From: Candidatus Spongiisociaceae bacterium
GTDB lineage: Bacteria; Actinomycetota; Acidimicrobiia; Spongiisociales; Spongiisociaceae
DNA length: 64,000 nucleotides
Assembly (NCBI GenBank): GCA_965262915.1
Contig: OZ253564.1
Span: 2,048,001-2,112,000, forward strand
Direction of reading: 5' to 3'
This document shows positions 41,834-47,693 of this stretch, piece by piece. The position numbers were made by a program, and so were the translations under genes. Each line of letters opens with the position of its first letter. Position 1 is the first letter of the stretch. The notes below the pieces were generated by a model. The model searched no databases. It saw only the letters and a list, made by a program, of their open reading frames with translations, and was not told the DNA's origin.

Positions 41834-41952
41834 ACGGGTGCCCTCCTGACTGCGACCATGGACGTTTACTTCACCGCCCATAATCGCAGGTCAGAAGGGC
41901 ATTCCCGTGTCAAACCACCCACCCCCACCACCAACCCCATGAAGAATTGGGG

Positions 41953-42058
41953 CTAGGTGCTAGGTGCCAGTACTTGATGATCGTCAACAGCACCTGACAC
42001 CTGACACCTGACACCTGACACCTGACACCTGACACCTGGCACCTGGCTCCCGACACCT
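41953..42058 (+). repeat. right part of the heptamer-repeat element (AGGTGCT units, core, CCTGACA run)
   Basis: 41955-41994 is identical over 40 bp to 45295-45334; followed by tandem CCTGACA/CCTGGCA. Confidence 0.88.
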
Positions 42059-43448: not shown

Positions 43449-45131
43449 TCAGGCGTCGGTCACGCACCCTGTACTCGCCGACGACACGGTGCGGATGTAC
43501 TTGGCGAGAGTGCCGCGGGTGGCCTTGAGCGCAGGGGCCGTCCAAGCCTTGCGCCGCCCGGCCAGATCCGCATCCGTGATGTCGATGGTGACCGTCCGGG
43601 CAACCGCGTCGATCGAGATCCGATCGCCGTTCTCCACCAGTGCGATCGGACCGCCCTCCTGCGCCTCGGGGCTCACATGCCCCATGATGAAACCGTGCGA
43701 GCCGCCCGAGAACCGGCCATCGGTGATCAGGGCCACGTCTTGGCCCAGTCCGGCGCCCATGATCGCCGATGTCGGGGTCAGCATCTCGGGCATTCCCGGA
43801 CCCCCCTTGGGTCCCTCGTAGCGGATGATGATCACCGAACCCGGTCCGATCTTGTCCCGCTCCAACGCCGCCAGCATCTCCTCCTCGCTGTCGTAGGGCA
43901 GAGCCGTGCCGGTGAACGACAGGCCTTCCTTACCGGTGATCTTGGCCACCGCGCCGTCGGGCGCCAGGTTGCCCCGCAGGATCTGGAGATGGCCGGTGTC
44001 CTTGACAGGGGCATCCCAGGGGACGACCACCTGCTGGCCGTCCGCCAGCCCGGGTAGATCGGCCAGGTTCTCGGCCATGGTGCGCCCGGTGACGGTGAGA
44101 CAGTCGCCGTCGATGGCCCCCCGGTCGAGCAGCATCCGCAGCACCGCGGGGGTGCCGCCGACCGCGTGCAGATCCGCCATGACGTAGCGTCCGGACGGTT
44201 TGAGGTTCCCCAGGTAGGGTGTTCGGTCGCTGACCGCCTGGAAGTCCTCGATCTCCAGTTCCACCCCGACGGCGTGGGCCATGGCCAGCAGGTGCAGGAC
44301 CGCGTTGGTGGATCCCCCGAGAACCATCGTGATCGTCATGGAGTTCTCGAACGCTGCCCTGGTCATGATGTCGCGCGGCCGGACATCCCCTTCCATGAGC
44401 CTCCGGATGGCCGCCCCCGCCGCCAGGCACTCGGCGGTCTTGCCTTCGTCGACGGCCGGGGTGGAGGAGCTGTAGGGGAGCGACATGCCCAGCGCCTCTA
44501 TGGCTACGGCCATGGTGTTGGCCGTGTACATACCCCCGCACGCGCCCGCTCCGGGACAGGCGTTGCGGACGATGTCGAGGCGGTCCTCCTCGTCCATCCG
44601 TCCGGCGATGCGCTCCCCGTACGACTGGAAGGCGGAGACGATGTCGATGGGGTTGCCGTACCGGTCCGTCCCCGGCTGGATGGTGCCCCCGTAGATCATC
44701 AGCGAGGGCCTGTTGAGCCGGGCCATGGCCATGACCGCGCCAGGCATGTTCTTGTCGCATCCGGGGATCGAGATGTTGGCGTCGTACCACTGCGCGCTCA
44801 TGACGGTCTCGATCGAGTCAGCGATCAGGTCCCGCGACTGGAGCGAGAACGACATGCCTTCGGTGCCCATCGACATGCCGTCGGACACCCCTATCGTGTT
44901 GAAGCGCATACCCACCAGCCCGGCCCGGCCGACCCCTTCCTTCACCAGGGCCGCCAACTGATCGAGATGCATGTTGCAGCTGTTCCCCTCGTACCACATG
45001 GAGGCGATCCCCACCTGGGCCTTGGACATGTCGCCGGGTGTGAGGCCGGTGGCGTACAGCATCGCCTGGGATCCGCCCTGTGACCGCTCCTGGGTTATGC
45101 GTCTGCTGATGAGATTGATGGGTTGCGACAT
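43449..45131 (-). CDS. ilvD: dihydroxy-acid dehydratase
   Basis: [53 protein letters not shown]. Confidence 0.96.
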
Positions 45132-45246
45132 GGGGCACATGATAGGTGGCTGGCGGATGGTGGTCCGTCGTCCGTTGTAACTCCTTCGGGTACCTATCTG
45201 CCGAGTTGGGTCTTCATCGCAAATAGTCCAGGTGTGGTAGCTGTTA

Positions 45247-45378
45247 CCGGCACCTGACTCCTGACTCCTGACACCGAAACAGGTGCTAGGTGCGAGGTGC
45301 TAGGTGCCAGTACTTGATGATCGTCAACAGCACCCCGGCACCCGGCACCTGGCACCTGACGCCTGACACCTGACACCT
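45247..45378 (+). repeat. heptamer-repeat element, most complete copy (IS110 target)
   Basis: CCTGACT/CCTGACA run, GAAACAGGTGCTAGGTGCGAGGTGCTAGGTGCCAG, core, then CCCGGCA/CCTGGCA/CCTGACA run; continues as GACACCTGAC after 46861. Confidence 0.88.
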
Positions 45379-45399
45379 AATGGGGGTCCACCACTTCTG

Positions 45400-45590
45400 C
45401 CGGTTTGTCTGGGAGGGTGGTGGTTGAGCTGGCCGGCCGGTGAGTACTGGTGGCACCCGGAAGGCTGATTCCTAGTGTCAGATCGTACCCCGGCCGGTTC
45501 GTGAGGGCCGCTTGTAGCGCTCATGGGGTGGCGTGCCACAGAGCACTGATCCATTAGGTCGCCGCCAGGCGTTCTCTACAGCTCGGCAAG
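45400..45590 (+). ncRNA. putative IS110 bridge RNA (boundaries approximate)
   Basis: Target loop with TGGCACC (45451-45457) and GTGTCAG (45475-45481); donor loop with TGGGGTG (45524-45530) and CCATTAG (45551-45557); each pair flanks an inner hairpin. Confidence 0.75.
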
Positions 45591-45617
45591 GATCGATCCC
45601 CGTTGAAGGAGGAAGGG

Positions 45618-46839
45618 ATGATATTTGTGGGTAACGACTGGGCTGAGGGCCACCATGATGTGTATCTGCTGGACGAGGGTGGGACCCGGCTGGGGTTCGC
45701 CCGTCTCCCGGAAGGCCTGGCGGGTGTGGCCCGGTTCCACCAGATGGTCGCCGAGCACGCATCGGATGCGGCTGAGGTAGTGGTAGGCATCGAGACCGAT
45801 CGTGGTCTGTGGGTGGGTGCGCTGGTCGCGGCGGGCTATGTGGTGTATGCGATCAACCCTAGGGCTGTGTCCCGCTACCGGGACCGTCACAGCCTGGGCG
45901 GAGCTAAATCAGACCGCGGTGATGCCAAGGTGTTAGCTGATCTGGTACGCACCGACCGTCACAACCACCGTCCCGTGGCCGGTGACAGCCCCGAATCGGA
46001 AGGTATCAAGATCGTGGCCAGAACCCATCAGAACCTGATCTGGGCTCGGACTCGTCACACCAACCAGGTCCGCAACGCTCTGCGCGAGTACTATCCCGCA
46101 GCGCTGGAAACGTTCGCTGACCTGGCCCATTCCGACGCTGTGGCCGTACTGGGTCGGGCACCCACCCCCAGCATGGGCGCTCGCCTGACGTTGCCCCAGA
46201 TCCGAGCTGCGCTCAAAAGGGGCGGACGGCGACGCAACCTCGATCCGGTCGCCCGCCGTATCCAAGCGGGCCTCCGAGCTGCTCACCTCGCCGCACCGGG
46301 GCCGGTTGAGGACGCCTTCGGAGCGACTGTCGGGGCACTGGTGAGCATCATTGGGGAGGCCAACCGCCAGATCAGCCAACTCGAAGCAACCCTCCAGACC
46401 CGTTTTGAGCAGCACCCGGACGCCGTCATCTACCACTCCCAGCCAGGACTCGGTACTGTGCTCGGCGCCCGGGCGCTCGGTGAGTTCGGGGACGACCCCC
46501 ACCGTTACACCAGCGCCAAGTCTCGCAGGAACTACGCCGGAACGTCGCCCATCACCGTGGCGTCGGGCCGCAAACGTGCTGTCCTGGCCCGCCACGTCCG
46601 AAAAGCGGCGTCTCTACGACGCCTTGGACCAATGGGCGTTCTGTTCCCTAACCCCAAGCCCAGGAGCCCGAGCCTTCTACGACCAGAAACGAGCAGCCGG
46701 CGACCTCCACCACCAAGCACTCCGAGCCCTAGCCAACCGACTCGTCGGCATCCTCCACGGCTGCCTCAAACACCAAACCCCCCACAACGAACACACCGCC
46801 TGGGCACACCGAACCACCATCGACCGAGCCGCAGCTTGA
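45618..46839 (+). pseudogene. IS110 recombinase/transposase with a frameshift near 46600
   Basis: MIFVGNDWAE, GIET, KSDRGDA, PGLGTVLGARALGEFGDD, YAGTSP; the C-terminus (RRLYDALDQWAF...ALRALANRL) is in another frame after CGAAAAG. Confidence 0.88.
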
Positions 46840-46934
46840 CATTTACGCGCCTGGGGTGTCTGACACCTGACCACTGGCTACGCTGGCGGCATGCCCGACT
46901 TGACCGGTCCCCGCCCGCCCCCGGGTCGCGGGCG

Positions 46935-47693
46935 ATGTTGATCGTCAGTGACGTGCATGCCGCGTTTGCCGAACTGGCTGCGGTCGCCGCTTCGGGGGAG
47001 CCCCTCCTAGTGCTGGGGGATCTGCTGAACTTCGTCGACTACCGGACGGGCACCGGGATCGCCGCCGATGTATACGGCCACGAGCACGCCCTCGCGTTCA
47101 TACGGAACCGCAAGACCGGCGATTGGGAAGCCAACCGCCGCCTGTGGCGACGGACGATCGCCGGCCGCGCGGACGAACTGGCGGCCCGGACGCAGGAACG
47201 GGTGTTGCAACAGTATGCCGCGGCGCGGGAGGCGCTGGACGGCGCCGATGCCTACGTGACCTTCGGCAACGTCGACTGGCCGGACGAACTGGAGTCCGGG
47301 CTTTCGGGAGCGGCCCGCTTCGTCGACGGTGAGGTGATCGAGATCGAGGGTCATCGGGTGGGTTTCGCGGGAGGGGGTGTCCCCACACCTGCTGGGGCGC
47401 GCGGCGAGGTCCCGCACGAGGTGATGGCTGCCAAGCTGGAGGCGCTCGGTGAGGTGGACATACTCTGCACCCACGTCCCGCCCTCCGTTGCGCCCCTCCA
47501 CCGGGATGTCATAACGGGCGTCCTGGAACGTTCCTCCCCGGTGGTCCTGGACTACCTGCTCACCTACCGGCCGAGGTACCACTACTTTGGAGACATCCAT
47601 CAGCCCCAGGCCCACTCCTGGAGGGTGGGTGCGACGGTGTGCCGCAACGTGGGCTACTTCCGGGCCACGGCGCGGGCGGTGAGGCATTGCTGA
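46935..47693 (+). CDS. metallophosphoesterase
   Basis: MLIVSDVH, LGDL, GNVD, CTHVPP, GDIHQP. Confidence 0.88.
   Translation: MLIVSDVHAAFAELAAVAASGEPLLVLGDLLNFVDYRTGTGIAADVYGHEHALAFIRNRKTGDWEANRRLWRRTIAGRADELAARTQERVLQQYAAAREALDGADAYVTFGNVDWPDELESGLSGAARFVDGEVIEIEGHRVGFAGGGVPTPAGARGEVPHEVMAAKLEALGEVDILCTHVPPSVAPLHRDVITGVLERSSPVVLDYLLTYRPRYHYFGDIHQPQAHSWRVGATVCRNVGYFRATARAVRHC

Follow-up and report, generated by a model that had tools for sequence, protein, structure and literature searches.

What placed an insertion sequence of the IS110 group inside a tandem run of host heptamers, at one particular register of that run, is the question raised by this locus. It lies in a stretch of 64,000 nucleotides from a Candidatus Spongiisociaceae bacterium (positions 2,048,001 to 2,112,000 of contig OZ253564.1, assembly GCA_965262915.1); the whole stretch is here called the window, and positions refer to it unless another contig name is given. 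Positions 45379 to 46861 form an IS110-group element of 1,483 bp, with one CT core counted, inside a CCTGRCA run. Judging from the sequences of this copy and of its relatives, the element very probably uses the published bridge-RNA mechanism, with a target loop that specifies the very heptamer register in which the element sits.

All of the features named in the original prediction, which had placed the element at a CT core in a (CCTGACA/CCTGGCA)n run, were found, and CT flanks the element on either side (45377-78 and 46860-61). The layout is that of the IS110 group, with a long noncoding left end (239 bp, against 240 bp predicted), a short right end of ~20 bp after the stop codon, and the dinucleotide core at both junctions. 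The N-terminal frame of the transposase starts at 45618 and breaks near 46600, and the C-terminal frame runs to a TGA at 46837-39. An intact homologue elsewhere in the genome (L003) encodes a protein with the Pfam domains PF01548 (DEDD_Tnp_IS110; 2.3e-33) and PF02371 (7.7e-09), which scores 181.7 bits (cutoff, 140 bits) with the NCBIfam model NF033542 "IS110 family RNA-guided transposase" and shows a distant match to the IS621 transposase (8wt6; E = 1.3e-7). The N-terminal DEDD (RuvC-like) domain and the C-terminal Tnp domain of the group are present in L003, and the window copy has the same gene in frameshifted form.

The left end is predicted to encode an RNA with two internal loops. The first, the target loop, is closed by an outer stem (45432-45447 with 45485-45497, CCGGCCGG..GUAC / GUAC..CCGGCCGG) and contains an inner GGAA/UUCC hairpin (45459-72, with 45459-62 paired to 45469-72). 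Its left guide, within 45448-45458, would have the sense of the target from its left half up to and including the first core base, with UGGCACC (45451-45457) as the matching part. Its right guide, GUGUCAG (45475-45481), would pair with the core CT plus five bases and is, as predicted, the exact reverse complement of CT+GACAC. Such a loop would specify ..TG(G/A)CAC-CT-GACAC.. (core between hyphens), one register of the CCTGRCA heptamers, and the element is located exactly there. The second, the donor loop, would pair with the element's own ends: the left donor guide CAUGGGGUGGC (45522-32) matches the element right end through its UGGGGUG part (45524-45530), and the right donor guide CCAUUAG (45551-45557) is the exact reverse complement of CT+AATGG, the core plus left end. 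Both donor guides and the GUGC/GCAC hairpin between them (45533-46, with 45533-36 paired to 45543-46) were found as the original prediction described.

A promoter across the joined ends had also been proposed, and the sequence reads accordingly. A -35-like TTGACA (46836-41) overlaps the transposase stop codon, and joining T-C-T (46859-61) to A-A-T (45379-81) in a circular intermediate would create TTGACA-N17-TCTAAT across the right-end/left-end joint. The TTGAC of the right end is kept in relatives, with a spacer of 17 to 18 bases (counted by hand). The bridge RNA is presumably made, and recombination presumably RNA guided, in this organism.

The assembly, a single 5.055-Mb contig of 64.4% G+C, contains 11 full-length copies of the element with 86 to 100% identity (L001 to L011, L001 being the window copy), plus fragments. 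CT is present on both sides in 10 of them, the exception being L011, in which the right junction is irregular. With the copies oriented, five guide classes were recognized, and in each of them the loops match their own flanks: (i) L001 to L004 have the right guide GUGUCAG and the flank ..GACAC-CT-GACAC; (ii) L005 has GUGCUAG and CT-AGCAC; (iii) L006 and L007 have GUGCCAG and CT-GGCAC; (iv) L008 to L010 have the right guide UGAUAG and the left guide AGGCUCCU at AAGGCTC-CT-ATCA; and (v) L011 has the right guide AACAUAG and the left guide AUGCUCCU at GGATGCTC-CT-ATGG. Seven of the 11 copies (L001 to L007) sit at the same CT of CCTGRCA-type runs, which vary from about two units (L002) to at least eight (L006), and fragments L013/L017 and L016 also adjoin heptamer sequence. 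The question of whether all copies lie in CCTGACA/CCTGGCA runs is answered positively for these and negatively for the other four full copies. In all seven heptamer-site copies the right guide matches its own right flank at 7/7 bases, and the single-base changes GUGUCAG/GUGCCAG/GUGCUAG follow CT-GACAC/CT-GGCAC/CT-AGCAC. On the left side, L004 alone has C at guide position -8, and it alone has C at that flank position. Read in this way, the target loop has diversified within one genome into at least five versions, three for heptamer variants and two for another multicopy IS110-family element.

The four copies outside the heptamer runs lie in sequence that is repeated ~30 times in the genome and belongs to this second IS110-family element, which has a 421-codon open reading frame (ORF) with PF01548, PF02371, and NF033542. 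The site of L008 to L010 is ~60 bp upstream of its transposase start, in its noncoding left end (an uninterrupted copy was seen), and L011 is at or beside its right terminus. Insertions of the same loops at unrelated targets would have spoken against guide-directed placement; the opposite was seen, with four copies carrying different loops at different, loop-matched targets. The second element, found at C1:541925-543412 (L104, about 1125-2613) and ~30 other places, is the more abundant of the two.

The guide-target relationship was also evaluated across the family. One genome per species was scanned, which gave 242 places coding for a relative; the analysis continued with the best 80. Among these, the closest are in metagenome-assembled genomes of sponge-associated Acidimicrobiia, and the more distant ones are in Rhodococcus, Mycobacterium, Nocardia, and other Actinomycetota. 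A left end was located in 76 of 91 loci, and the guide test set comprised 71 loci with both flanks and ungapped guides (five were skipped), 66 of them nonredundant. At noncore positions, 602 of 726 guide bases match the flanks, whereas 2000 shuffles gave 267±14 (maximum, 335). For the left guide, agreement with the left flank at positions -8 to -2 ranges from 0.65 to 0.98 of the loci versus 0.25 to 0.61 in shuffles, position -2, the conserved first core base, giving 0.98 both observed and shuffled. The right guide shows a 7-base match to the flank (0.67 to 1.0 per position). Covariation of the target-loop guides with the flanking target, as in the IS110 group, was observed both in the five classes within the genome and in the family test, which agrees with the proposal of a natural guide aimed at a tandem repeat.

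The internal loop itself is conserved. In an alignment of 62 distinct left-end sequences, the RNAalifold consensus shows an outer helix of 14 pairs and an inner hairpin of 4 pairs, and the target guides occupy the internal loop between them. Over the 22 pairs tested, 98.5% of cells were paired and 10 pairs had compensatory changes; 0 of 500 shuffles scored as high, and pairing fell to 27 to 52% when the partner was slid by 1 to 3 columns. Seven of the 14 pairs of the target-loop helix (10-25/75-90) and three of the four pairs of the inner hairpin are compensatory, and the target-binding internal loop is closed by conserved stems as in the IS110 group. The donor-loop hairpin is invariant and therefore carries no covariation information. 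The donor guides fit the element ends in 36 distinct combinations, and the one variable donor column (G/A) agrees with the ends in 0.89 of the cases versus 0.49 shuffled. The complementarity of the donor loop to the right end and to the core plus left end is broken by L004, L010, and L011. Four donor-loop pairs proposed by RNAalifold (columns 125-128 with 161-166) overlap the donor guides and were excluded from the tested structure.

Eleven copies in sister genomes (L026, L030, L039, L040, L042, L111, L116, L121, L126, L129, and L133) have the left guide CCACCCUCC and the right guide GGGCUAG. They sit in a repeated sequence, ...CCCCTTTGTGCGGGGTTTTCTCAGGACCCTC-CT-AGCCC..., which holds a small G/C-rich hairpin and is, by its sequence, a target class like the repetitive extragenic palindromic (REP) elements for the same element lineage.

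Heptamer targets are plentiful in this genome. It contains 102 exact tandem heptamers with three or more units, including 41 of CCTGGCA and 16 of CCTGACA. Perfect CCTGRCA arrays of this minimum length number 59, the longest perfect arrays having 22 units. Tandem Repeats Finder (TRF) reported 318 period-7 arrays of many unit types, which cover 10.7 kb, or 0.2% of the 5.055 Mb. Candidate 13-mer sites number 199 for TGGCACCTGGCAC, 69 for TGACACCTGACAC, 19 for TGGCACCTGACAC, and 12 for TGACACCTGGCAC. The three-unit CCTGRCA pattern occurs 190 times here versus 0 to 7 times in the 30 relatives searched (4, 4, and 7 in three of seven same-genus genomes and zero in the other 23 relatives), which marks a strong expansion of such arrays in this genome. 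Among the 69 loci with both flanks available, a period-7 target was found only at L001 to L007; in a congener that has arrays (G007), two left ends truncated at contig ends (L128 and L131) adjoin heptamer-like sequence. Although 41 of the 59 arrays lie inside a six-frame ORF of at least 150 amino acids, the mask of such ORFs covers 90% of the genome, and the count is uninformative because the arrays are stop-free in most frames. The three arrays of the window lie between long ORFs, and array orientation shows a weak trend with respect to replichore. Insertion normally destroys the target, according to a preprint (10.64898/2026.08.14.744561). An insertion into a tandem run leaves intact in-register targets to its left and right, and this survival is a property specific to the tandem-run target class.

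An allele without the element was also identified. Contigs from two public runs of different studies (X1 and X6) pass directly from 45376 to 46860 and so lack exactly 1,483 bases. With up to 8 mismatches allowed, the rejoined 64-mer has no match in the assembly, so these contigs represent the empty allele and not another array, and this allele is an uninterrupted heptamer run. The depth of the joint contig, a rough guide only, was 28 versus 64 to 120 in the flanks for X1 and 6.3 versus 12 to 34 for X6.

These data bear on whether the link to heptamers could have arisen without guides, either because segmental duplication or homologous recombination between runs carried copies and flanks along together or because the element itself generates or expands the runs. 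The sequence past the runs differs at all seven sites, indicating separate insertions. The runs are recombination-prone, however, L001 and L007 have a 22-bp motif in common to the left of their runs, and a +1 allele and a donor-loop variant found in diverged copies (both described below) show that sequence has been exchanged. Such exchange would have to account for a right guide that tracks the flank base for base, for an empty allele that is an unbroken run, and for a loop-flank rule that holds equally for non-repeat targets at ~60 loci of other genomes. The 59 perfect CCTGRCA arrays, ~300 candidate sites, and 318 period-7 arrays occur without the element. We regard this alternative as already largely refuted and give it hardly any chance of being correct.

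Several observations nevertheless weigh against a bridge RNA that guides this element to the heptamers. The seven bases directly left of the element, counting the first core base, are TGACACC, from which the left guide UGGCACC differs by G-for-A; the guide fits this flank only via an rG:dT wobble, and the match of TGGCACC to the repeat left of the core, as originally predicted, is exact only three units upstream, at 45350-56. Left-guide position -1, opposite the core T, agrees in 0.41 of the loci, the same as in shuffles, and is C in the window copy; pairing of both core bases by the left target guide was not seen, a difference from IS621 and not from the whole family. In the minimum-energy fold of the single sequence, UGGCAC pairs with GUGUCA instead of leaving the loop open, formally one of the outcomes that the original prediction had named as speaking against it, whereas the family consensus puts these 7-mers in an internal loop between covarying stems. 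An outer stem of the donor loop was found neither by RNAalifold nor by eye in the alignment, and Rfam 15 gave no match over the left end (45379-45617) at an E value of ≤1. The transposase gene is broken in 5 of the 11 copies: L001, L002, L004, L005, and L011. The right junction of L011 (C1:290119-290128), like L015 (C1:4804822), ends in ...GGG(G)ATGCTCCT and not in ...GGGGTGTCT, and the variant right donor guide CUGCUAG has 3/7 mismatches to its own unchanged left end. A circle-junction joint (46861 to 45379) was not listed among the public-run contigs, which drop rare forms. RNA-library contigs over the left end (16 in X19 and 5 in X20) are short and unstranded, with depths of at most 9; they are mostly 90 to 99% alike, hence from other, diverged copies, and are evidence neither for nor against transcription.

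The self-pairing of the guides can be traced to the target. Shifting the left target half by seven bases yields the core-plus-right half, and consequently the left (sense) and right (antisense) guides are mutually complementary. Folded in isolation, target loops of the heptamer classes reach -18.7 to -20.5 kcal/mol, compared with approximately -10.7 kcal/mol for those of L008 and L011. Because guide-matched insertions exist at seven sites, we consider the self-pairing to be a consequence of the target rather than evidence against the loop.

By its sequence, the window copy is unable to make a full-length transposase; an uninterrupted gene of ~406 codons is present in 6 of the 11 full copies (L003 and L006 to L010). 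The five broken copies have in common a +1 allele, GTCCGAAAAGCGG (versus GTCCGYAACCGG), at the place of window positions 46600-46606, and they are otherwise up to 14% diverged. In L005, the +1 allele restores the frame after a frameshift upstream. A programmed +1 recoding site, by which the carriers would still make transposase, is suggested by the recurrence of the allele in five of 11 copies, L011 with its 86% identity included, and by its being the sole lesion in L001 and L002. Gene conversion among the copies explains the sharing, however, and the allele is found in none of the 80 relatives' loci. Moreover, L004, L005, and L011 hold additional frame breaks, the A4 run is short for slippage, and we know of no precedent for such recoding in the IS110 family. 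Recoding is therefore a most improbable explanation.

The frameshift also raises the possibility that the window copy, inserted by its guides in the past, is now an inert relic that is immobile and whose RNA is not made or used. As an integrated copy it lacks the junction promoter, its RNA and circle traces were not found among the public-run contigs, and the abstract of PMC13626964 opens by calling bridge RNA "weakly ...". The copy nevertheless retains both ends and both loops intact, with a donor loop of the canonical type, so movement would depend on the transposase of the six intact copies. L002, with 98% identity to the window copy, lies at a different genome site and shares its frameshift, meaning that either a defective copy was mobilized in trans or conversion spread the allele. 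In both runs, the empty-site allele was present at about one-third of the flank depth, although the depths are rough. On balance we consider it unlikely, but by no means far-fetched, that the copy is such a relic.

A variant donor loop was identified in L004, L010, and L011, which belong to three guide classes; in these, GAGGGGGUGG...CUGCUAG replaces CAUGGGGUGG...CCAUUAG, and L009 has the first half only (C1:721143, 288643, 291468, and 3639885, respectively, all on the minus strand). The variant is found in none of the 80 relatives. A search of the genome for the site that it implies returned, at best, a single 15-mer with 1 mismatch, which is about the level of chance (~0.4 expected by our own estimate). 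The UGCUAG common to the variant donor loop and the right target guide of L005 was discounted, three of its six bases being fixed anyway. Together, the variant donor loop, the odd ends of L011 and L015, and the shared +1 allele point to frequent sequence exchange among the copies. L011 has the eight bases ATGCTCCT on both sides of the element instead of CT alone.

A broader proposal would treat the element and the heptamer microsatellites as a coupled system with properties beyond those that single-copy or REP targets offer, in which (i) many in-register sites survive insertion, (ii) sublineages partition the GACAC, GGCAC, and AGCAC sites, (iii) a 6-bp guide-guide closed state is opened by the recombinase or by the target, (iv) guides are re-aimed at the rival IS110-family element, and (v) the mismatched donor-loop variants are possible nonmobile regulators or decoys. 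We offer this as a speculative scheme that is doubtful as a whole.

Other IS110-family members also have narrow targets. IS4321 and IS5075 target the terminal repeats of Tn21-type transposons and so insert into another mobile element, as do L008 to L011; they belong to the IS1111 group and have the RNA in the right end, unlike the window element. IS900, IS901, and IS902 of mycobacteria are actinobacterial members with a strict short target. To our knowledge, neither IS4321/IS5075 nor the IS900 group uses tandem heptamers.

The closest parallel in mechanism is IS621 of Escherichia coli (structures 8wt6 to 8wt9), for which Durrant et al. (2024; PMC11208160) described a bridge RNA with the two-loop logic, a CT core, and a native promoter across the right-end/left-end joint. 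IS621 and the window element have in common a recombinase with DEDD plus Tnp domains, a long left end and a short right end, a left-end target loop with a sense left guide and an antisense right guide, and a donor loop that matches the joined ends, as well as the junction promoter, which is predicted here. In IS621, the guide encodes ATCGGGCCTAC and insertion is mostly at ATCAGGCCTAC (PMC11208160); the guide is therefore one G-for-A wobble away from its commonest natural target, as in the window copy. The proteins are only distantly related, however, and the right guide is 7 nucleotides here versus 4 in IS621; the same paper reports longer right guides in other orthologues and natural guide-target covariation across the family. 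Here the left guide follows six bases and, within the core, the first base only, whereas the rule given for IS621 in that paper has both core bases paired. As its target, the window element has a tandem heptamer instead of the REP palindromes that IS621 uses (PMC11208160), and the two target guides are mutually complementary. ISPpu9 and ISPpu10 of Pseudomonas putida (PMC12288879; bioRxiv 10.64898/2026.03.19.712850) resemble the present case as IS110-family elements whose copies are all described in one multicopy intergenic host repeat; they differ in belonging to another phylum and in that their repeat is a REP-type palindrome or a conserved intergenic sequence rather than a short tandem array.

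A literature search found no paper tying IS110 or bridge RNA to heptamer or tandem-repeat targets; the search did not extend to the supplementary target tables of PMC11208160, which may hold heptamer-type targets. With that reservation, the result is consistent with the original prediction of a target class distinct from REP. In two preprints that were found, "tandem repeat" means cargo or element copies arranged in tandem and not the target. The mechanism deduced here from sequence is the established one of bridge RNAs. The novelty lies in the target class, in the diversification of guides within one genome, and in the guide-guide pairing that results from a period-7 target.

Eleven copies with five guide versions, in which single-base guide changes mirror target changes, amount to a natural experiment in bridge-RNA reprogramming and provide a natural case for testing the cost of self-complementarity between two target guides. 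Short tandem repeats join the REP elements, integron sites, transposon ends, and ribosome-binding regions known as natural targets of the family. For engineering, this suggests that microsatellite-like arrays may serve as multicopy landing pads. In sponge-associated Acidimicrobiia, the unusual expansion of CCTGRCA arrays is linked to a mobile element that lives in the arrays.

Coordinates of the element, its parts, and the adjoining heptamer sequence in the window
Feature	Position	Strand	Basis or remark
Host heptamer region left of the insertion	45253..45378	+	Sequence reading, TRF
CCTGACT x2.9	45253-72	+	Part of the left heptamer region
Inverted AGGTGCT units	45281-45307		22-bp spacer next
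(CACCTGR)n run	45346-45378	+	Ends in core CT 45377-78; scored by TRF
IS110-group insertion sequence	45379..46861	+	11 full-length genome copies; empty-site contigs skip 1,483 bases
Noncoding left end, 239 bp, encoding the predicted bridge RNA	45379..45617	+	Fold z = -3.1; conserved in 76 loci
Target-binding loop (predicted)	45432..45497	+	Helix covariation, guide-flank covariation
Donor-binding loop (predicted)	45522..45557	+	Complementarity to right and left ends, 36 distinct combinations
IS110-family transposase gene, broken by one extra base in 46600-46606	45618..46839	+	
Right end	46836..46861	+	TTGACA, 17-base spacer, terminal T 46859, core CT 46860-61
Right target flank GACACCTGACC(A)	46862..46873	+	Interrupted heptamer run continues

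A compound motif, in which inverted (AGGTGCY)n is followed by a conserved 22-bp spacer, AGTACTTGATGATCGTCAACAG, and forward (CACCYGR)n, occurs five times in the genome, and two of the five carry an insertion of the element studied here. Its places in the genome are C1:744066, 2089971, 2093311, 739313(-), and 131689(-), and in window coordinates it is found at 45281-45378 and 41952-42058. The motif could fold into a long hairpin. Rfam microRNA matches over the heptamer region were far under their thresholds and were dismissed as chance.

Within the transposase gene, the Rfam family RF02464 (Ms_AS-4, an actinobacterial small RNA) matches 46439-46520 in antisense orientation (minus strand; 84.8 bits; gathering threshold, 50; E = 4.8e-13). 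This was the only genuine Rfam match, and the family apparently coincides with a conserved part of the transposase genes of the IS110 family. The frameshift leaves one open frame on the plus strand (45603-47693), an artefact ORF of 696 codons that extends from the transposase start through the right end into the downstream gene. That gene (46893-47690) matches Metallophos weakly (PF00149, 23 bits), and the upstream gene (43449-45140, minus strand) is a dihydroxy-acid dehydratase-like ORF, as judged by reading its translation. Since the upstream gene is on the minus strand and the downstream gene on the plus strand, the insertion lies between divergent genes.

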